Source: a virus (lineage: Duplodnaviria; Heunggongvirae; Uroviricota; Caudoviricetes). Taken from it: a stretch of 16,552 nucleotides of DNA. The stretch is from IMG/VR virus record IMGVR_UViG_2585427768_000007, one strand, 5' to 3'. Shown here in pieces: positions 2,402 through 13,843 of this stretch. The notes under the pieces are model-generated. The model had not been told where the DNA came from and searched no databases. It worked only from the letters and a program-made list of their open reading frames with translations. A program made the translations under genes and the position numbers. Within the stretch, counting starts at the first letter, position 1. The number at the start of each line of letters is the position of its first letter.

Positions 2402-3193
2402 TTACCGGCCCTGGTTGTGCGATCGTGTCAGATGCACCAGTATTTTGTTGTGAACCTGAGTACGTACCGTTTTTACGGGCGAAATATTCCTCTTTCGTGA
2501 TTTCAGTAGCCCCAGCGCCAGTGCCTTATCCAGACCAGAAAGTTTGTTTGCGCGACCGTATTTTTCGCCGTCCTTATCGGTGAAAAGGAAGTAGAACGGT
2601 CCCTCACGCTCTACAGATGGTTCGTCTTCCACTTCGCATTCGGTTTTTTCGTTGTCCGGCATTGCCGTTTCCACTGCATCAGTTTCTGGTACTGGTGACG
2701 GGAGAGTACCAGCTGTGCCCTGATTTGTTCCTTCGTCATCTTCAAACACGCCCTTGGTAGTCAGGTATTCAGTGATGTATTTGTTCAGTGCTACGGGATC
2801 TTTGTGAATGTCGATCGGACGCTCACGGACAAGGCCAAAAATAGTCTGACGGTCGTAGCGAACGGCATCAGGCTGTTTGCGCATTGATGCCGAAATACGC
2901 TTCCAGTCTTCGCGATCGTTGTCGATAACTTCATTTTTTGCCCAGCGATGGATGCTGCCGTCAATGTTTCCGGTATCAATATCGCCAGGCCAGAGAGCGT
3001 AGGCCAGTTCTTCATCCAGCGTTTTCCATGTCTGCTTGTATTCGCGACAAATGGCGGCAGTGACTGGGTTGATTTTTCCTGCTGAGTTTTCAGTGTTCTG
3101 TTGATTGACTCTGGCGCTGGCGAGATCAACAACAGACGTGTATTTTCCAGTCTCCTTGCGCTCACCGTCCCGACGTTTTTTCCAGATACGCAT
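2402..3193 (-). CDS. Middle segment of phage early protein (acidic), in -1 frame relative to the 3765 start
   Basis: 263-aa ORF. Protein-like composition and common codons from 3193 to about 2510; the last ~35 codons use rare codons (cta, cga, agg, ata, cgg) and look like out-of-frame read-through. ATG at 3193 is preceded directly by TGA. Confidence 0.45.
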   Translation of the reverse strand: MRIWKKRRDGERKETGKYTSVVDLASARVNQQNTENSAGKINPVTAAICREYKQTWKTLDEELAYALWPGDIDTGNIDGSIHRWAKNEVIDNDREDWKRISASMRKQPDAVRYDRQTIFGLVRERPIDIHKDPVALNKYITEYLTTKGVFEDDEGTNQGTAGTLPSPVPETDAVETAMPDNEKTECEVEDEPSVEREGPFYFLFTDKDGEKYGRANKLSGLDKALALGLLKSRKRNISPVKTVRTQVHNKILVHLTRSHNQGR

Positions 3194-3765
3194 TCAGCCT
3201 GAATTTCGGGCCATTTGGCACCAGGATTACATTTATGCTTAACCCACCCGATAGCAAACAGCTTAAGCTCCGGATACATAGCGTTAACATCAGGCATTTT
3301 CATCAACGCTTCAACGATATGCCCGTCAAAGGTAGCAACGTCTTCCTGCAACAATTCCTGCGCGCCAATAACCATATCAACGGTGATGTTTTCACATGTA
3401 CCGAACTTAACCAGGACAGCGTTCTGTACTTCAAGGGACAGCTTGTCAAAATTGACGTTCATCGGATCGGATTCAGTCTCAACCGGGACAAAGGAAGCAG
3501 ACTCCTCATCCCAGCGGTTTTCCTGCATATATTCAGCATCCCAGGAATCGAGGGCAGGGCGGGGTATACCGGGTTTATCCTCGCAGACAAGAAATTTATA
3601 AGCGCAGTCCTGAGCAGCCGGATAATGTTCCAGGAATTGCCAGTGAAATTTTGCGCGGGCGCGACGTTCATCACCGGCTTCAATGGCAGTGGCTACAGCG
3701 ACGGCACCTTCTTCCTTTATTGCCTGTTCGTCCGGAATAGCGGCGCAAATAAAGACTTTACTCAT
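2791..3765 (-). CDS. N-terminal segment of phage early protein (first ~197 codons genuine, remainder out of frame)
   Basis: Shine-Dalgarno GAGGT upstream of ATG 3765. Composition is protein-like up to the A6 run at 3176-3181; after that the frame yields S/T/L/R-rich low-quality sequence while the -1 frame becomes protein-like. Confidence 0.5.
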   Translation of the reverse strand: MSKVFICAAIPDEQAIKEEGAVAVATAIEAGDERRARAKFHWQFLEHYPAAQDCAYKFLVCEDKPGIPRPALDSWDAEYMQENRWDEESASFVPVETESDPMNVNFDKLSLEVQNAVLVKFGTCENITVDMVIGAQELLQEDVATFDGHIVEALMKMPDVNAMYPELKLFAIGWVKHKCNPGAKWPEIQAECVSGKNVGTVSARRLENTRLLLISPAPESINRTLKTQQEKSTQSLPPFVANTSRHGKRWMKNWPTLSGLAILIPETLTAASIAGQKMKLSTTIAKTGSVFRHQCANSLMPFATTVRLFLALSVSVRSTFTKIP

Positions 3766-4032
3766 TTTGTTTTACCTCATTACAGATTTAAGGGTGAACA
3801 AATCCCTGCCATTGCTGGCATATAAGAATGAAACCGGATAATATGACGGACGGGTTAGCCAGCCGGGATTTCGTTATTAGCCTCGCGATACTTTATCGAA
3901 CGGGAAACAGTCACCGGGAATTTTCTGTTCGTCCCTACAGAACACACGATGACTTACTGTCAAAAATGACGGCAATAACAACTGGCTCACCCGAAACAAG
4001 AAAAACGGTCAGAACAAGTGCAAATGCTGAAG

Positions 4033-4221
4033 TCACTGCTGTTCTCCGATAATACCAAGTTCAAGAAGGGCAATTCTGGAAAGTATGGAATTATCATTGA
4101 GAAGATAAGGTTCATATTTTCTCATCTTAATGGCATCTTCAGTAAACTCCCGGTTACTGAGCAGAACACCAATATCAAAACAACCTTCAGACGTATTAAC
4201 GTTTGGTAATAACGTTTCCAT
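4033..4221 (-). CDS. dicB: Cell-division inhibitor DicB homolog
   Basis: 62-aa ORF beginning METLLPNVNTSEGCF...FTEDAI, matching my recollection of Qin DicB in length and N-terminal half. GAGGA 7 nt upstream of ATG. Lies directly downstream of DicF as in Qin. Confidence 0.8.
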   Translation of the reverse strand: METLLPNVNTSEGCFDIGVLLSNREFTEDAIKMRKYEPYLLNDNSILSRIALLELGIIGEQQ

Positions 4222-4392: not shown

Positions 4393-4448
4393 AAAGGGCG
4401 GCAGAGCAGTCACGGAGTAAAACTGATACCGCCAAACGTCACCAGAAA
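4393..4448 (-). ncRNA. dicF: DicF small regulatory RNA (ftsZ-targeting sRNA)
   Basis: Minus strand reads TTTCTGGTGACGTTTGGCGGTATCAGTTTTACTCCGTGACTGCTCTGCCGCCCTTTTT, which matches the E. coli DicF sequence as I remember it, including the terminal GC stem and U-tract. Confidence 0.8.
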
Positions 4449-5398: not shown

Positions 5399-5527
5399 TC
5401 AGCCGTTAGATTTTGCCGAGCTGGAAAGCGCCTGTTTAAACTCACTGAAGCTGAGAGCTTCTTCGCCTTCGGCAAGGCCTTCGAAGTATTCTTCGTAAGC
5501 CTTTTCCATGATTGTGTCGAAATCCAT
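5399..5527 (-). CDS. ydfB: YdfB-like small acidic protein (42 aa)
   Basis: Not in the supplied ORF track (below its size cut-off). Hand translation gives MDFDTIMEKAYEEYFEGLAEGEEALSFSEFKQALSSSAKSNG. AGGTGA Shine-Dalgarno upstream; packed between the ydfA-like and ydfC-like genes. Confidence 0.5.
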   Translation of the reverse strand: MDFDTIMEKAYEEYFEGLAEGEEALSFSEFKQALSSSAKSNG

Positions 5528-5528
5528 A

Positions 5529-5684
5529 TCACTCACCTGAGTTTCTTTCCAGCCAGCGACGGGCACCATTTTCGGTTTTAAACGTTTTGCTTTTGGTATA
5601 CGTCATCGCGGTGAATGTGCCGTCCTGGTTGGGAAACACGCCGTACACCAGAGATTCATTGTTGCCAAGATCGATAGTATCCAT
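5529..5684 (-). CDS. ydfA: YdfA-like small prophage protein (51 aa)
   Basis: MDTIDLGNNESLVYGVFPNQDGTFTAMTYTKSKTFKTENGARRWLERNSGE. GAGG 7 nt upstream of this internal ATG. The longer 80-aa form starting at 5771 is possible but its N-terminal extension is low-complexity. Confidence 0.55.
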   Translation of the reverse strand: MDTIDLGNNESLVYGVFPNQDGTFTAMTYTKSKTFKTENGARRWLERNSGE

Positions 5685-5890
5685 GCTGACCTCATTTCCC
5701 CTTAACGCCGGGGTAGCGGAACTAAAAAACTGCTGCGCTGTTATATAAAGTGTTCCCGCCGTCATGTTCATACGCCTCGGGCTGGCTACTTAACCCCTGA
5801 CCACTGCCGGGTAACTCGAAGTATTGCCTGGCGTTCTGTGGGGCGGGGGGGGTTGATGAATGAACAATACCACTACTATTTAATTATGTA

Positions 5891-5905
5891 AATAGCAGTG
5901 CTATT
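5891..5905. promoter_or_regulatory. Candidate repressor operator, perfect inverted repeat AATAGCA-G-TGCTATT, upstream of the dicB-like operon
   Basis: 15-bp palindrome between the terminator after the toxin gene and the ydfA-like gene. The same half-site recurs twice in the repressor/cro intergenic region. Confidence 0.5.
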
Positions 5906-5913
5906 ATCGTGGC

Positions 5914-5939
5914 AAGAAAAAAACCACCCGAAGGTGGTT
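5914..5939 (-). terminator. Rho-independent terminator downstream of the toxin gene
   Basis: On the minus strand, stem AACCACC, loop TTCG, stem GGTGGTT, followed by TTTTTTTCTT. Confidence 0.6.
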
Positions 5940-5953
5940 GTTGACAGGAAGGA

Positions 5954-6244
5954 TTAACAGGTTTTGTTTGGATACTGTCTTCGTGAGTGAACTACATTTA
6001 CGATCTCGATGTTAGATGCTGTTACTCGGTAAAGTATTATGTAGTTAGGATGAGTCACTATCTCACGAAGACTTGGAACTCTTTCGCTCGGTGGGTACAG
6101 ATAAGGGTGTTCAGTAAGTGACAAAACTGATGTTTCAATGCGTATTTTTAGTCTACGTGCAGCGGGAGGGTTTTCCTTAGCAATATAGGCTACGATCTGA
6201 CGTAAATCATCACGTGCAGAAGGTAGCCATAAAATGGGCAGCAT
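5954..6244 (-). CDS. Type II toxin, RelE/ParE superfamily (ParE-like)
   Basis: 96-aa ORF with ParE-like conserved layout (W near N-terminus, DL..I..YI, central proline-rich segment, ILYRV, H.RR near C-terminus). Start ATG overlaps the antitoxin stop by 1 nt. Confidence 0.8.
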   Translation of the reverse strand: MLPILWLPSARDDLRQIVAYIAKENPPAARRLKIRIETSVLSLTEHPYLYPPSERVPSLREIVTHPNYIILYRVTASNIEIVNVVHSRRQYPNKTC

Positions 6245-6435
6245 TACTCACTCCTGTTCGTTGCAGCTAATTGAGCAATAAGGTTTTCCATTTCAGCCAT
6301 TACTTCGTCATGTGGAATTGCAGGACGGGGATCTGAGAGGCTTGCTGCCACTTTGGTTCGCAACCATTCGTTATAGCTGTTTTCTTGTTCGACTGTTTCA
6401 AATTCAGAAATTATCGGGGAAAGGGCTGTACTCAT
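6244..6435 (-). CDS. Cognate antitoxin (ParD-like, putative)
   Basis: 63-aa acidic ORF immediately upstream of and coupled to the toxin. Strong Shine-Dalgarno GAGGAGG. Antitoxin-first order is typical of ParDE/RelBE modules. Confidence 0.7.
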   Translation of the reverse strand: MSTALSPIISEFETVEQENSYNEWLRTKVAASLSDPRPAIPHDEVMAEMENLIAQLAATNRSE

Positions 6436-6452
6436 GTTTTTACCTCCTCAGA

Positions 6453-6953
6453 TTAGGCGCGACGACCCTTTTGCGCAGCTAGCCATCGCGCAACGATTTC
6501 TTCAATTGATTCTTTTTTCTCCTTCATTTCCTTAAGCATTTTCTCTTTATCTTCTTTGGGGAAAGCCCTGAACGTCTGGAGCAAATCCCGCTCCATGGGG
6601 TCTATATTAAACGGAAGTTCGTTTTCCGATTGTTCCATATCTGCAGATATAGTGACAACATTGTCCTCCCCAGATTCTTGGGGATACATCCTTACAATTT
6701 GTAACAACTCGGCCATATCTGGTCTGATTGACTCGGGAGGAACTTGCAGCAACCCTGCGAACTTGATAACAGCCTCAAGATTTAAAGGTGTCTGACCATT
6801 TAGATAATGGCTTACAGCTCCCTGTGTCGAAAATCCCAGAATTTCTGCCGCACGCTCTTGGGTTAACCCTAGTTGATTTTTTTTCGCCGTCCAGATTTCT
6901 TTCAGTCTCTGGGCGGCTTGCAGGTCGATCTCTGACAGGGATTTTCTTTTCAT
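6453..6953 (-). CDS. Prophage repressor, XRE-family HTH (CI/DicA functional analog), no S24 peptidase domain evident
   Basis: 166-aa ORF; HTH segment LTQERAAEILGFSTQGAVSHYLNG; charged coiled-coil-like C-terminus; divergent from the Cro-like gene across an operator-rich intergenic region. Confidence 0.8.
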   Translation of the reverse strand: MKRKSLSEIDLQAAQRLKEIWTAKKNQLGLTQERAAEILGFSTQGAVSHYLNGQTPLNLEAVIKFAGLLQVPPESIRPDMAELLQIVRMYPQESGEDNVVTISADMEQSENELPFNIDPMERDLLQTFRAFPKEDKEKMLKEMKEKKESIEEIVARWLAAQKGRRA

Positions 6954-7060
6954 ACCTTCAATTCTAATAAGATTATTAATCTCTTTGAAATAGTGATGCT
7001 ATTTACTTTTAAAAATAACAATGCTATTAGTGATCGTGATGACATCACATGAGGTGAACA
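6954..7060. promoter_or_regulatory. Divergent promoter/operator region between repressor and Cro-like gene
   Basis: Two 15-bp sites with TGCTATT half-sites (6988-7002 AATAGTGATGCTATT; 7013-7027 AATAACAATGCTATT) and a distinct 13-bp palindrome GTGATGACATCAC at 7035-7047, just upstream of the Cro-like RBS GAGGTG. Confidence 0.6.
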
Positions 7061-7336
7061 ATGAATCTTGGAGAATATTTGCATCATTCCGGTATAACTC
7101 AGAAGCATTTTGCTGAAATTGTTGGGGTAACCCAAGGGATGGTAAGCCATGTCATTACCGGACGGGCGAAACTTACGGGGAAAAAAATTTTACGCTGGTG
7201 CGAAGCAACAGGCTGGATAGTAACTCCGCACGAGATTGATGGCAGTACTTATCCCAACCCAACCGACGGCTTACCTGTCGAGTATCAGGCTAACACACAA
7301 CCAGAGGCGGGGGTGATTCATGAAAATCAAGCATGA
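7061..7336 (+). CDS. Cro/YdaS-like HTH regulator
   Basis: 91-aa ORF; HTH segment ITQKHFAEIVGVTQGMVSHVITG; divergent from the repressor; overlaps the next gene by 17 nt. Confidence 0.75.
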   Translation: MNLGEYLHHSGITQKHFAEIVGVTQGMVSHVITGRAKLTGKKILRWCEATGWIVTPHEIDGSTYPNPTDGLPVEYQANTQPEAGVIHENQA

Positions 7337-7745
7337 ACACATCCGCATGGCAATGAATGCCTGGGCGTATCCAGACGGTGAGAAAGTTCCAGCAGCTGAA
7401 ATAGCCCGGACTTATTTCGAACTGGGGATGACGTTCCCGGAACTGTACGACGACAGCCATCCGGAAGCCCTGGCCCGTAATACCCAGAAAATTTTCCGCT
7501 GGGTAGAGAAAGACACCCCTGATGCAGTTGAAAAAATTCAGGCGTTGTTACCAGCGATCGAAAAGGCAATGCCACCTTTGCTGGTGGCCAGAATGCGCAG
7601 CCACAGTTCAGCTTATTTTCGGGAGCTGGTGGAGACGCGGGAGCGACTGGTGAGAGACGCTGATGATTTTGTCGCAGTGGCAATCGCCGGTTTCAATCAG
7701 ATGAACCGTGGTGGCCCGGCAGGAAATGCTGTGGCAGTACATTGA
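7320..7745 (+). CDS. YdaT-family protein (CII-like regulator, formerly called a toxin)
   Basis: 141-aa ORF starting MKIKHEHI, the characteristic YdaT-family N-terminus as I recall it; sits directly after the Cro/YdaS-like gene as in Rac. Confidence 0.65.
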   Translation: MKIKHEHIRMAMNAWAYPDGEKVPAAEIARTYFELGMTFPELYDDSHPEALARNTQKIFRWVEKDTPDAVEKIQALLPAIEKAMPPLLVARMRSHSSAYFRELVETRERLVRDADDFVAVAIAGFNQMNRGGPAGNAVAVH

Positions 7746-7816
7746 CTGACAATAGCCATATCGAATCGCTTCCGGCAACTCGTGAGTAAAAAGATTCGGT
7801 ATCAGAAGAGGTGAGT

Positions 7817-8833
7817 ATGGCTAACGCCTGGCTCAGATTATGGCATGACATGCCAAATGACCCTAAGTGGCGAACAATTGCCAGGGTGTCAGGGCAGCCA
7901 ATTGCAACAGTGATGGCAGTGTATATCCACCTCCTGGTGAGCGCGTCACGAAATGTCACGCGAGGTCACATTGATGTCACGACAGAAGATTTGGCAAGTG
8001 CGCTCGACGTGACAGAAGAGGTAATTGATTCAATTTTGCAGACGATGCAGGGGCGGGGACTTGATGGTGATTTAATCACTGGATGGGAAAAACGCCAGGT
8101 GCTTAAAGAGGACAACGGCAATATTTCGCAAACCGCAAAATCTCCGGCAGAGCGCAAGAGGGCGCAGCGTGAGAGGGAAAGAAAGCGGGAACAAAATGGC
8201 GATTGTCACGGCGCGTCACGAAATGTCACGCACATGTCACGACAAGTCACGACAGATAAAGATACAGATACAGAATTAAACCCCACACATAACGCGCGCA
8301 TGCGCGAGAGTGCTCCAACCGGTGAGTCGCATGGTGCGCCGTTGCAGACAGCCGAACCTGAATACCTGGACGGCCTGAGCGAACCGATCGGGAAATTTTC
8401 GATGACTACTGTCTGGCAGCCGTCGTCGGATTTTCGACAACGGGCAGCAGTGTGGGGTATGGCTCTGCCTGAGCCGGAATTTACACCTGCAGAGCTTGCC
8501 GCATTCCGGGATTACTGGATGGCGGAGGGGAAGGTTTTCACGCAGGTTCAGTGGGAGCAGAAATTTGCCCGCCACGTGCAGCACGTCAGGGCACAGGTAA
8601 AACCAGTCAGCAAGGGGGTAAGCCATGCAGCATCAGGTGGCACGGCATCACGGGCAGTTCAGGAAATCCGGGCAGCACGCGAACAGTGGGAACGTGACAA
8701 CGGATTTATCAGCAACGGAAACGGCCTGGAAGCTGTGGGAGCTTATGGGGGAGGTGTATTCGAACCGCTGGACACAGAAGAACGGGGCCGCACCTTCGAA
8801 GCTCTGGATTGCCCAGATTGGCGCGATGACTGA
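7817..8833 (+). CDS. Replication initiator / replisome organiser (lambda O-like, with DnaT-like C-terminal region)
   Basis: About 338 aa from ATG 7817 (GTG at 7811 is an alternative). Contains two iteron clusters inside the coding sequence, as lambda O contains ori. Followed by a P-like gene. Confidence 0.8.
   Translation: MANAWLRLWHDMPNDPKWRTIARVSGQPIATVMAVYIHLLVSASRNVTRGHIDVTTEDLASALDVTEEVIDSILQTMQGRGLDGDLITGWEKRQVLKEDNGNISQTAKSPAERKRAQRERERKREQNGDCHGASRNVTHMSRQVTTDKDTDTELNPTHNARMRESAPTGESHGAPLQTAEPEYLDGLSEPIGKFSMTTVWQPSSDFRQRAAVWGMALPEPEFTPAELAAFRDYWMAEGKVFTQVQWEQKFARHVQHVRAQVKPVSKGVSHAASGGTASRAVQEIRAAREQWERDNGFISNGNGLEAVGAYGGGVFEPLDTEERGRTFEALDCPDWRDD
7941..7981. repeat. Iteron cluster 1 (4 x GTCACG/GTCACA at 10-11 bp spacing)
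   Basis: GTCACG at 7945, 7955 and 7976, GTCACA at 7965; an inverted copy CGTGAC at 8008-8013. The 21-bp block GCGCGTCACGAAATGTCACGC is repeated exactly at 8211-8231. Confidence 0.7.
8201..8280. repeat. Iteron cluster 2 (5 x GTCACG at 10-11 bp spacing) plus adjacent AT-rich tract; candidate replication origin
   Basis: GTCACG at 8205, 8215, 8225, 8236 and 8246, followed by GATAAAGATACAGATACAGAATTAAA. Lambda-ori-like layout inside the initiator gene. Confidence 0.7.
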
Positions 8834-10502: not shown

Positions 10503-11696
<1,194 letters not shown>

Positions 11697-11853: not shown

Positions 11854-12540
11854 ATGACCCCAATAAAAATATTTATGACTATTGCTGATTTCAAACGGCC
11901 TAAATTGGAACTCCCAAACGGGGCAAACAAACTACTACTGCACTCTTGCTGTGCTCCATGTTCCGGTGAAGTGATGGAGGCGCTTCAGGCCTCGGGAATC
12001 GACTACACCATCTTTTTCTACAACCCGAACATTCATCCTCAGAAAGAGTATTTAATTCGTAAGGATGAAAATATTCGCTTTGCTGAACAACACGGCGTGC
12101 CGTTTATCGATGCTGATTACGACACCGACAACTGGTTTGAACGTGCCAAAGGAATGGAATGGGAGCCTGAGAGGGGGATCCGTTGTACCATGTGTTTTGA
12201 CATGCGTTTTGAGCGGACAGCGTTGTACGCTGCTGAAAATGGTTTCAGTGTGATCAGCAGTTCACTGGGCATTTCACGCTGGAAAAATATGCAGCAGGTT
12301 AACGAGTGTGGGCGGCGAGCTGTTGCGCATTATCCGGGTATGGTGTACTGGGATTATAACTGGCGCAAGCAGGGCGGCTCGTCCCGTATGATTGAAATCA
12401 GCAAGCGCGAAAAATTCTATCAGCAGGAATATTGTGGCTGTGTGTATTCTCTGCGCGATACCAATCTACACCGCAAATCTCAGGGACGCCCTCTTATCAA
12501 AATTGGCCAACTCCACTACGGAAAAGAAGAGAAGGAGTGA
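11854..12540 (+). CDS. QueH-like protein (DUF208; epoxyqueuosine-reductase family), putative
   Basis: 228-aa ORF with [11 protein letters not shown] near the N-terminus, NPNIHP, RC..CF, and C-terminal [10 protein letters not shown], matching DUF208/QueH cysteine motifs as I recall them. Family assignment is from memory. Confidence 0.55.
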
Positions 12541-12610
12541 TTTTATGGATCACCTTTCTGATTGATTTCATATTGGCGAGGTGACGTGAGTTAAGTAGAA
12601 TTGCTGCGGG

Positions 12611-12635
12611 TGCCTGAGGCTGTCTGCCTCAGGCA
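12611..12635. promoter_or_regulatory. Perfect 10-bp inverted repeat (TGCCTGAGGC-TGTCT-GCCTCAGGCA) between the queH-like and methyltransferase genes
   Basis: GC-rich hairpin with no U-tract; each arm contains a CCTNAGG heptamer. Candidate attenuator, operator or RNA-stability element. Confidence 0.4.
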
Positions 12636-12718
12636 TGAACACCAAAAGGCAGATAGAGAAAGCCCCAGTTAACATTACGCGTCCTGTAAGACGCTCAACA
12701 TTAATCTGAGGCATATGG

Positions 12719-13843
12719 ATGCGGATGAAAGAATTAAATAAATTCAGAGTGATAGACCTCTTTTGTGGGGCAGGTGGATTATCTTATGGTTTTCTTCATG
12801 GAGAGATGTCTGACTACTTTGAAAGTATCCTTGCTATTGATAATAATGCTGCAGCTATAAATACCTACAATGCCAATTTTGGTTTGCATGGAGTTCAGGC
12901 AAATATTGAGGAGTGGGCATCCAGCAATACTGTTCCTGAGGCTGATGTGGTCATAGGTGGCCCCCCGTGTCAGGGATTCAGTTTATTAAATAAGAATCGT
13001 TATGGTGATCACCGAAGAGCATTGTGGGAGCCTTATATGGATGTCATTGAGCGTTCAAGGGCTTGTATGTTCGTCATGGAAAATGTCCCCGGATTGCTGA
13101 TAAGCGATGAGTTTGCGGACATTACGTTTAGAGCGAAATCCATGGGCTTTATTCTGCTTAATCCAATGGTGTTGAATACTGCTGACTATGGAGTACCTCA
13201 GACAAGAAAACGAACGATAGCAATCGGTATCAAACGAGAACTCTTCGATGTGCATAGTATTCCGGCGTTCCCGCCAGCACCAACGCATCGTTCCCCTGAT
13301 AAGGATGTCGCTTTGCCTGAATGGGTCTGTACGCGTGATGCAATTGGTGACTTACCTGCTCCTGTTGGAACTGATATTCGTAATGAACTTCCTCCGCTGA
13401 ACTTACATTTTGGGCGTAATCCCACACCTGTTTCTCTGGAGCGATATAAAGCGGTTCCACCAGGAGGTAACCGTTTCGATTTACAGAAAAAAAGACCTGA
13501 TATAACCCCGGCGTGCTGGCTAAAAAAGAAATCTGGAGGGACCGATTTGTTTGGACGTCTGTGGTGGGACAGACCTTCAGTAACGATTCGTACTGAGTTT
13601 TTCAAACCGGAGAAAGGGCGATATTTACATCCGGAAGAGGATCGGCCAATAACTCATCGTGAGGCAGCGAGATTAATGTCTTTTCCTGATAATTTCATTT
13701 TTACCGGTTCAAAAACTGAGATTGCAAAGCAGATCGGGAATGCTGTTCCACCGCTATTTGCGGCAAAAATCGCACAATATGTGTATGGAGTTTTGCAGGG
13801 ACGGTATAAGAATAACATCAGTAAGAATAGTCAAGCAGCCTGA
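12719..13843 (+). CDS. DNA (cytosine-5)-methyltransferase, Type II R-M modification subunit
   Basis: 374-aa ORF with canonical m5C motifs in order: I DLFCGAGG, IV GGPPCQGFS, VI ENV, VIII QTRKR, IX REAARLMSFPD, X GNAVPP. GAGG 8 nt upstream of the ATG. Confidence 0.9.
   Translation: MRMKELNKFRVIDLFCGAGGLSYGFLHGEMSDYFESILAIDNNAAAINTYNANFGLHGVQANIEEWASSNTVPEADVVIGGPPCQGFSLLNKNRYGDHRRALWEPYMDVIERSRACMFVMENVPGLLISDEFADITFRAKSMGFILLNPMVLNTADYGVPQTRKRTIAIGIKRELFDVHSIPAFPPAPTHRSPDKDVALPEWVCTRDAIGDLPAPVGTDIRNELPPLNLHFGRNPTPVSLERYKAVPPGGNRFDLQKKRPDITPACWLKKKSGGTDLFGRLWWDRPSVTIRTEFFKPEKGRYLHPEEDRPITHREAARLMSFPDNFIFTGSKTEIAKQIGNAVPPLFAAKIAQYVYGVLQGRYKNNISKNSQAA

Follow-up and report, generated by a model that had tools for sequence, protein, structure and literature searches.

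Immunity switches of the textbook lambdoid architecture found here have already been demonstrated in two close relatives. In prophage CP-933P of Escherichia coli O157:H7, electrophoretic mobility shift assay (EMSA), footprinting and reporters showed that both OR and a PL-like promoter, PL933P, are targets of PaaR2 and YdaS (Jurenas et al. 2021, PMC8630535). The paaR2 mRNA is leaderless according to 5' RACE (rapid amplification of cDNA ends), and the switch is bistable (PMC8630535). In prophage Qin of E. coli K-12, DicA represses both dicC and dicBp, the promoter upstream of ydfA (Bejar et al. 1988 as cited in PMC10448788; Yun et al. 2012, PMC3441716). Here we analyse IMGVR_UViG_2585427768_000007, a Caudoviricetes record of 16,552 nt (hereafter the window, meaning this whole stretch of DNA), which its gene content identifies as an E. 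coli lambdoid prophage. We consider it very likely that 15-bp palindromes of the form AATAGCA-N-TGCTATT are the operators of the immunity switch of this prophage and serve both early promoters, including the promoter of the dicB operon.

The window resembles CP-933P in its gene order, in which pL and OL are followed by ParE, PaaA, the repressor, OR, a YdaS-like gene and YdaT. Antitoxin and toxin are homologous in the two prophages, YdaT is highly similar, and the repressor has no peptidase domain in either. The PaaR-type C-terminal domain of the repressor and the PaaA2/ParE2 module are present in the window. The means of DNA recognition are different. PaaR2 starts with MQKKE, has another helix-turn-helix (HTH) and binds 18-bp repeats of the consensus GTTTAGTAA (PMC8630535), whereas the 166-aa repressor of the window has a lambda-CI-type domain and is accompanied by AATAGCA-N-TGCTATT; it carries neither the DNA-binding domain of PaaR2 nor the GTTTAGTAA operator. 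The open reading frames (ORFs) downstream of PL933P have no assignable function, whereas pL of the window would drive ydfABC, DicF and dicB. At the DNA level, the toxin-antitoxin genes of the window are at most ~80% identical to the copies of O157:H7.

The layout of the window matches that of Qin, in that a single repressor, predicted to be non-cleavable, would serve a divergent cro-like gene and dicBp ahead of ydfA-ydfB-ydfC-dicF-dicB, with related operator copies at both. The ydfA-ydfC DNA is 97.8% identical, and the C-terminal ~50 aa of the two repressors are related (27% identity). In the K-12 sequence, DicA-type repeats (TGTTAG..CTAACA) stand in the spacer between dicC and dicA and twice before ydfA. 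In contrast, the N-terminal domain of DicA and its operator TTGTTAGTCATAACTAACAA are unrelated to their counterparts in the window, DicC has no similarity to the Cro-like protein, no toxin-antitoxin pair lies between repressor and dicBp of Qin, and its pL leader is shorter. The window motif has no match in the Qin locus, and no site like the DicA operator Oc (TTGTTAGTCATAACTAACAA) occurs in the window.

Candidate operators at the two early promoters

The motif AATAGCA-N-TGCTATT is present in four copies, which form two 40-bp cassettes with a centre spacing of 25 bp in each. The left cassette holds OL1 (5866-5880; AATACCACTACTATT, 2 mismatches) and OL2 (5891-5905), a perfect palindrome, AATAGCAgTGCTATT, also written AATAGCAGTGCTATT. 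The right cassette holds OR2 (6989-7003; AATAGTGATGCTATT, 2 mismatches) and OR1 (7014-7028; AATAACAATGCTATT, 1 mismatch). A repeat search recovered the two cassettes independently as an inverted repeat of 40 nt (5866-5905 and 6989-7028). A site equivalent to OL1 exists in relatives, which also keep the arrangement at OL2. The sequence-only reading of this DNA had described three of the four sites. The perfect palindrome lies exactly where that reading placed it, and the centres of the two near-copies are indeed 25 bp apart; both near-copies had been put 1 nt too low, and the copy at 5866-5880 had been overlooked. Because this fourth copy lies 25 bp from 5891-5905, both promoters carry an equally spaced pair.

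Motif and palindrome counts were made within the window of ~16.5 kb. With up to 3 mismatches allowed, the motif has 5 matches where 0.89 are expected, a number reached in 0 of 200 shuffles. The search for further copies that had been proposed earlier thus added one, at OL1. A weight matrix built from relatives alone ranks the four sites first, with 18.6 bits for OL1, 24.0 for OL2, 19.9 for OR2 and 23.6 for OR1, and the next position in 16.5 kb reaches 9.5 bits. A match with 3 mismatches at 12824-12838 scores 8.0 bits and was treated as background. The motif is real, non-random and more extensive than first described.

The promoters around these sites are sequence predictions, with pL and pRM taken from a consensus promoter scan and pR from an alignment with pL. 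Predicted pL, the promoter of the dicB operon (5864-5892, minus strand), has the -35 hexamer TTTACA (5892-5887), a 17-nt spacer and a TG-extended -10, TATTGT (5869-5864). OL1 overlaps its -10 and OL2 its -35. Predicted pR (7001-7029, plus strand) is built in the same way from TTTACT (7001-7006), a 17-nt spacer and the TG-extended TATTAG (7024-7029), with OR2 over the -35 and OR1 over the -10. At 7024-7030 the window reads TATTAGT, as do the related loci L059 and L109, and all other related loci read TATTAAT, a natural variation in the last position of the -10. In every relative, the right half-site GCTATT is joined to the -35 in site 2 (GCTATTGAC or GCTATTTAC) and makes the -10 in site 1 (GCTATTGT), and the fusion of operator and promoter at pL (GCTATTGAC ... 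GCTATTGT) is found in seven of them. Since GCTATT is part of the promoter hexamers, bound repressor would occlude the -35 and -10 of both pL and pR.

Predicted pRM (6961-6989, minus strand) consists of TTCAAA (6989-6984), a 17-nt spacer and TAGAAT (6966-6961). In the promoter scan its -10 ends 7 nt before the ATG of the repressor, and a hexamer TAGAAT or TAAAAT is kept 6-7 nt before this ATG in distant relatives. Transcription from pRM would be expected to start at or beside the ATG at 6953, which, by analogy with paaR2 (PMC8630535), would probably yield a leaderless repressor mRNA. Between the pRM hexamers, 23 bp from OR2, lies a tentative OR3 candidate (6966-6980; AATAAGATTATTAAT). Together with OR1 and OR2, it overlaps predicted hexamers of pR or pRM. 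The OR3 position holds better matches in relatives, namely AATAAGATTGCTAAT in L013 and L024 and ATTAGCAATACTATT in L010. On the other side, reading of the sequence and a weight-matrix scan gave no third site beside OL1 or OL2. An intrinsic terminator of the repressor-antitoxin-toxin operon (5922-5939, minus strand), with a 7-pair stem AACCACC/GGTGGTT followed by a T run, lies directly upstream of OL2 and parts this operon from pL.

Repressor, Cro-like protein and their relatives

The repressor gene (6453-6953, minus strand) encodes a protein of 166 aa with a lambda-CI-type N-terminal and a PaaR/DicA-type C-terminal domain. Residues 2-90, including a basic N-terminal arm, are homologous to the N-terminal domain of lambda CI (phmmer E 9e-10 to 1.5e-9). 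In an AlphaFold model, five helices at the N-terminus are joined by a disordered linker (90-112) to a short helix and then a long one at the C-terminus. In a Foldseek search with this model, the top 10 matches in the Protein Data Bank (PDB) were all the N-terminal domain of lambda cI, at 34-39% identity and a root-mean-square deviation of 1.1-2.0 Å, and entries of the isolated domain gave TM scores of 0.83-0.93. The residues through which lambda CI contacts DNA and sigma are known from repressor-operator and repressor-sigma complexes. In our alignment, lambda Q33, Q44 and N52 correspond to Q32, Q44 and N52 of the window repressor, and the positive-control residues E34 and D38 to E33 and E37; S45 is replaced by G45.

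At its C-terminus, the repressor is 47% identical over 87 aa to the 133-aa PaaR-type regulator of an O157:H7 locus (L014), and only aa 112-162 align with DicA, at 27% identity. The protein contains no S24 peptidase domain, as Pfam finds HTH_3 and HTH_31 only and the model has a linker and two helices in this place; among the relatives, only distant ones (P0031, L017) carry such a domain. Without an S24/LexA-like C-terminal domain, no RecA-mediated cleavage is expected. Since a lambda-type N-terminal domain is followed by a PaaR/DicA-type tail of ~50-55 residues, the repressor is, by its domain content, a chimera, and by the same comparison an orthologue of neither DicA nor PaaR2.

The resemblance to lambda extends from this homologous domain to the layout of the switch. 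Both systems have dyad operators with a central unpaired base and a site spacing of 23-25 bp, and in both the sites cover the -10 and -35 hexamers of pR and pL, which in the window are predicted ones. OR2 is in the activator position for pRM, the acidic patch is conserved, and the repressor mRNA is predicted to be leaderless. Lambda differs in its operator sequence (TATCACCGC-type), whereas each operator region of the window has two clear sites only. Unlike in lambda, the repressor of the window has no S24/LexA-like domain, CII is replaced by YdaT, and the Cro protein is an HTH_3/YdaS-type paralogue of the repressor and does not have the lambda Cro fold.

This Cro/YdaS-like protein (7061-7336, plus strand, 91 aa) is 31% identical to the N-terminal domain of the repressor (E 2e-7). 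Its recognition helix VTQGMVSHVITG almost equals that of the repressor, STQGAVSHYLNG (TQGMVSH versus TQGAVSH), and is conserved in the same loci. Because the two helices are nearly identical, the Cro-like protein probably uses the same operators as the repressor, in the manner of lambda Cro and YdaS, and not a separate site. In another group of homologues of 240-255 aa (P0014, P0018-P0020 and P0022, from L006-L010), two HTHs are present in one protein, a lambda-like one at the N-terminus and a PaaR-like one behind it, followed by the shared C-terminal helix. The true start of P0019 and P0020 is probably an internal MKRKSLSE, since the annotated N-terminal extension covers an OR3-like site.

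Across repressor homologues that range from 89% down to 46% identity, the segment GF(S/T)TQGAVSHYLN is essentially invariant. We compared eight divergent loci with repressors of 46-78% identity, drawn from E. coli, Shigella, a Salmonella assembly and unassigned sequencing-run contigs. These loci differ in the C-terminal architecture of the repressor and in their cargo genes. In most of them, the divergent spacer contains motif pairs 24-26 bp apart, and 6 of the 8 carry a second pair downstream of the repressor operon. The Salmonella loci have weak matches only and lack the downstream pair, and only weak matches were found for the most distant homologue, the S24-containing P0031 (locus L012). 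In the pooled relatives, 23 matches with up to 2 mismatches occur in 57 kb, compared with 0.17 expected; none of 100 shuffles gave more than 2. Close variants differ from one another in the central 3-4 bp and agree in the outer AATAG and CTATT. Fixed outer bases around a variable centre are as expected for a helix-turn-helix dimer.

Heteroimmune relatives provide the converse case. L014 (the O157:H7 locus), the related locus L015 and L016 (E. coli RM9245) share the toxin-antitoxin genes, the C-terminal domain of the repressor and the ydfA leader with the window, at 73-81% DNA identity. L016 is CP-933P-like and served as a proxy for the published CP-933P operators, and L014 is probably CP-933M/PaaR1, as judged from its ECs1072-family neighbour. 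All three differ from the window in their DNA-binding domains and in the repeats at both OR and OL, which are ACAATAAAAAACTGT-type and GTTTA-type, the latter in L016 only. The operators thus co-vary with the immunity type despite homologous flanks. Because the heteroimmune loci share these flanks and differ at OL, the OL patch appears as a small island that switches along with the DNA-binding domain. In L016, two tandem PaaR-type regulator genes (2932-3784; 153 aa and 123 aa) lie upstream of the PaaA/ParE pair.

We also searched viral contigs by DNA alone for two degenerate sites, which yielded 120 loci. Of these, 18 have the sites between a TQGAVSHY repressor and a TQGMVSH Cro, and the GC content of all 18 is enterobacterial. 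Most of the other loci are AT-rich chance matches, and several viral loci of moderate GC content adjoin CI-like repressors whose helices are related, including cases with a different type of Cro. Paired AATAG-N5-CTATT sites were seen in L025, L030/L051, L045, L060, L104 and L113, beside CI-like repressors with TQGAFNQY, TQGAVGHF, SQGNLGHY, TQGAFSAY and NQGFLQQW helices, which suggests that AATAG-N5-CTATT may be a broader operator class.

The proposed switch and competing explanations

In the switch that we propose, a dimer of the 166-aa repressor would bind AATAGCA-N-TGCTATT. At OR1 and OR2 it would cover the -10 and -35 of pR, from which the Cro-like gene, YdaT and the replication genes would be transcribed; at OL1 and OL2 it would cover those of pL, from which ydfA-ydfB-ydfC-DicF-dicB would be transcribed. 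With paired sites over pL and pR, one protein would silence both arms. Repressor bound to OR2 probably activates its own, probably leaderless, pRM transcript. Lambda-like activation is suggested by the position of OR2, with its centre ~43 bp upstream of the repressor ATG, and by the conserved acidic sigma-contact patch. This transcript would include the PaaA-like and ParE-like genes and stop at the terminator just before OL2, and the weak OR3 may turn pRM off at high occupancy. The Cro-like protein would compete for the same sites and form a bistable switch with the repressor. The earlier proposal that one repressor controls both its own divergent region and the dicB-operon promoter through a shared operator, as DicA does in Qin, is supported by the match in layout to Qin and CP-933P and by the way in which the motif tracks the DNA-binding domain of the repressor across relatives.

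Several points weigh against this interpretation. Site occupancy, promoter positions, activation, cooperativity and OL-OR looping are all deduced from sequence. The -10 of pR, TATTAG, matches poorly; its last base, a G, caused the consensus scan to miss this promoter. The OR3 candidate scores 8.4 bits, which is at the level of the background. The weight-matrix test is partly circular, since the sites from relatives were selected by their likeness to the window consensus. Finally, the co-variation is shared by the repressor and the Cro-like protein and does not separate the two as readers of the sites. The sites themselves and their statistics are firm, as are their conservation and the way in which they co-vary with the DNA-binding domain.

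The last of these points raises the question whether the repressor reads the sites at all; the sole reader could instead be the Cro-like protein or some other factor, for example the PaaA-ParE complex. The recognition helix of the Cro-like protein does co-vary with the motif as well as that of the repressor, and type II toxin-antitoxin complexes classically autoregulate through operators. In L104 and L113, however, the motif persists beside CI-like repressors with a TQGAF helix, where the small divergent gene nearby belongs to another type. In addition, the N-terminal domain of the repressor retains the DNA-contacting residues of lambda CI, PaaA2 has no DNA-binding domain, and the homologous system is regulated by PaaR2 (PMC8630535). 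We therefore regard a readout without the repressor as improbable. Even less credible, to the point that we give it almost no weight, is the explanation that OL and OR resemble each other as duplicated promoter sequence with shared -35 and -10 hexamers, so that the dyad would be accidental and without operator function. The junction of the right half-site GCTATT with promoter hexamers (GCTATTTAC, GCTATTGT) would fit such a duplication, but conservation is just as strong in the left half-sites, AATAGC, and these are no promoter hexamers. The dyad symmetry is also kept in 24 distinct sites from relatives, and in heteroimmune relatives the motif changes with the DNA-binding domain of the repressor although sigma-70 is the same.

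A different question is posed by a second palindrome, GTGATGACATCAC, which lies next to the start of the Cro-like gene. The sequence-only reading had located it at 7035-7047 and had taken it as a sign of a second DNA-binding specificity. It is present, at 7036-7048, as a perfect 6+1+6 palindrome that would span roughly +1 to +13 of the transcript from predicted pR. Were it a separate operator, a second protein, be it the Cro-like protein, YdaT or a factor of the host, would control the start of the cro-like transcript. When up to 2 mismatches are allowed, it has 3 matches against 0.71 expected, a count reached in 4 of 200 shuffles, and its half-site GTGAT resembles the GTGATT half of a YdaT-type site at 7313-7330. 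As a perfect 6+1+6 palindrome it is nevertheless one of 11 in the window, and 30 are found when spacers of 0-3 nt are considered. Of the 26 loci that share OR1 and the start of cro, 11, which represent 2 of 8 haplotypes, keep GTGATGACATCAC intact; the rest have GTAATG.., GTGGTG.., ATGGTCACATAAC or GTAACACATCAC in its place with no compensating change, and they include a prophage with 99.8% identity to the window over 5400-7800. It has no counterpart at pL, its half-sites are separated by 1 nt and not by the 6 nt of the footprinted YdaT site (PMC9986795), and the Cro-like helix matches that of the repressor and offers no new specificity. As RNA, the element folds no better than shuffled sequence (z +0.9). 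The palindrome is most likely fortuitous, being neither conserved nor compensated nor rarer than chance, and the claim of a second specificity is not supported. A small chance that it acts as a separate operator is left by one of its near-matches, GTGATtTaATCAC at 8067-8079. This site (GTGATTTAATCAC) lies inside the DnaT-like replication gene and shares its outer bases with 7036-7048 and its half-sites with the YdaT-type site.

Three specific roles for the palindrome were considered and rejected. A 5'-terminal hairpin in the cro-like mRNA has a fold energy like that of shuffled sequence and is lost in the variants. A CRP site at 7030-7049 was dismissed by eye, as the spacing between GTGA and TCAC is 5 and not 6. 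YdaT does not fit GTGATGACATCAC, since its published operator, TTGATT-N6-AATCAA, has a 6-nt spacing (PMC9986795). A good match to this operator lies instead at the junction of the ydaS and ydaT genes, where the inverted repeat GTGATTcatgaaAATCAA (7313-7330) differs from it by one mismatch and occupies the same position as the OM site footprinted in CP-933P (PMC9986795). On these two grounds, 7313-7330 is probably the site of the CII-like regulator for a pRE-like promoter.

Beyond the basic switch, it is possible, though we hold this only tentatively, that the locus represents an SOS-independent, compact lambda-like switch built by domain shuffling. In this extended model, a CI-type DNA-binding domain with its sigma-contact patch would have been combined with a PaaR-type oligomerisation helix, which would allow pRM activation and OL-OR looping over ~1.1 kb, the distance between the OL and OR centres. 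PaaR2, which has such an oligomerisation helix, forms octamers. Repressor and Cro-like protein would be paralogues that read identical half-sites through TQGxVSH, as part of a wider, undescribed AATAG-N5-CTATT class beside CI-like repressors in many phage contigs. The toxin-antitoxin pair would be locked between OL and OR, and if this model is true, its position there would penalise exchange of the immunity module.

Gene context and implications

Prophages inserted beside potCD in E. coli chromosomes match the region at 99.8% identity. From left to right, the window contains an integrase gene, a recE-like region, the dicB-like gene, DicF, ydfC, ydfB, ydfA and the OL cassette, followed by the terminator, the ParE2-like toxin, the PaaA2-like antitoxin, the 166-aa repressor, the OR cassette, the Cro/YdaS-like gene and YdaT, with DnaT-like and P-like replication genes to the right of YdaT. 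The immunity type was found in 72 of 5,426 complete E. coli genomes, O104:H4 strains among them. A protein scan of species-representative genomes returned no relatives of the repressor, because the immunity type is absent from these genomes.

On the left arm, the gene order ydfA-ydfB-ydfC-dicF-dicB is present, and the operators overlap the predicted promoter pL upstream of it. The first gene downstream of pL is ydfA (5529-5684, minus strand; DUF1391). DicF (4396-4447, minus strand) is a small RNA recognised by Rfam RF00039 with 76.7 bits, and the dicB-like cell-division inhibitor gene (4033-4221, minus strand) encodes a product with 61% identity to K-12 DicB over 62 aa. The leader of ~130 nt between pL and ydfA (5724-5857) contains a long C-run on the transcribed strand; it is conserved in the heteroimmune loci L014-L016 and absent from K-12 Qin. 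Further left, the segment 1298-4747 aligns at 89% to a single recE-like exonuclease gene of 2472 nt in a related prophage. As it is split here into several shorter ORFs, this recE-like region is possibly a pseudogene, in keeping with a cryptic prophage.

Between the two operator regions, the repressor, a PaaA2-family antitoxin and a ParE2-family toxin form one operon in this order, with overlapping or adjoining genes and the terminator after the toxin gene. The antitoxin (6244-6435, minus strand, 63 aa) matches PDB 3zbe (E 2e-22) and the Pfam family PF21217 PaaA2, and the toxin (5954-6244, minus strand, 96 aa) matches PDB 5cw7_B (E 5e-36) and the Pfam family ParE_toxin. The space between repressor and OL contains PaaA/ParE, HigB/HigA, a HipA_2 kinase with DUF3037, or Rha/Ash-type genes in L003, L006/L007, L008/L009 and L013. 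Judged from this varied cargo, often with toxin-antitoxin modules, the space behaves like a moron slot analogous to lambda rexAB.

The repressor and Cro-like genes are divergent, with a spacer of 107 bp between them. YdaT (7320-7745, plus strand, 141 aa), a CII-like regulator, matches PDB 3c4r (E 2e-89) and 8bt1 (E 1e-78). In the far right part of the window, a DUF1627 gene is followed by a DDE transposase of an insertion sequence (IS) element, then by a QueH-like gene and a hok/sok-type module (10535-11551 and 11854-12788), with an Rfam sok match at 12608-12788.

Conceptually, these results add little and are unsurprising; they illustrate once more the modular lambdoid design with its joint swapping of DNA-binding domain, operators and partner Cro. 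The operator sequence itself appears to be undescribed, and none of its four variants was found in the searchable literature; the domain combination of the 166-aa repressor is apparently undescribed as well. With the operators known, they can serve as ready targets for EMSA, reporter and chromatin immunoprecipitation (ChIP) work, which would be useful for studies of DicB and DicF induction or of PaaR-PaaA-ParE systems. The locus would gate DicB, DicF and a ParE-family toxin. DicB and DicF inhibit cell division and affect phage resistance. Alongside the PaaR/PaaA/ParE prophage switches that have been studied in O157:H7, the prophage represents, through its operator sequence and layout, a third immunity specificity.

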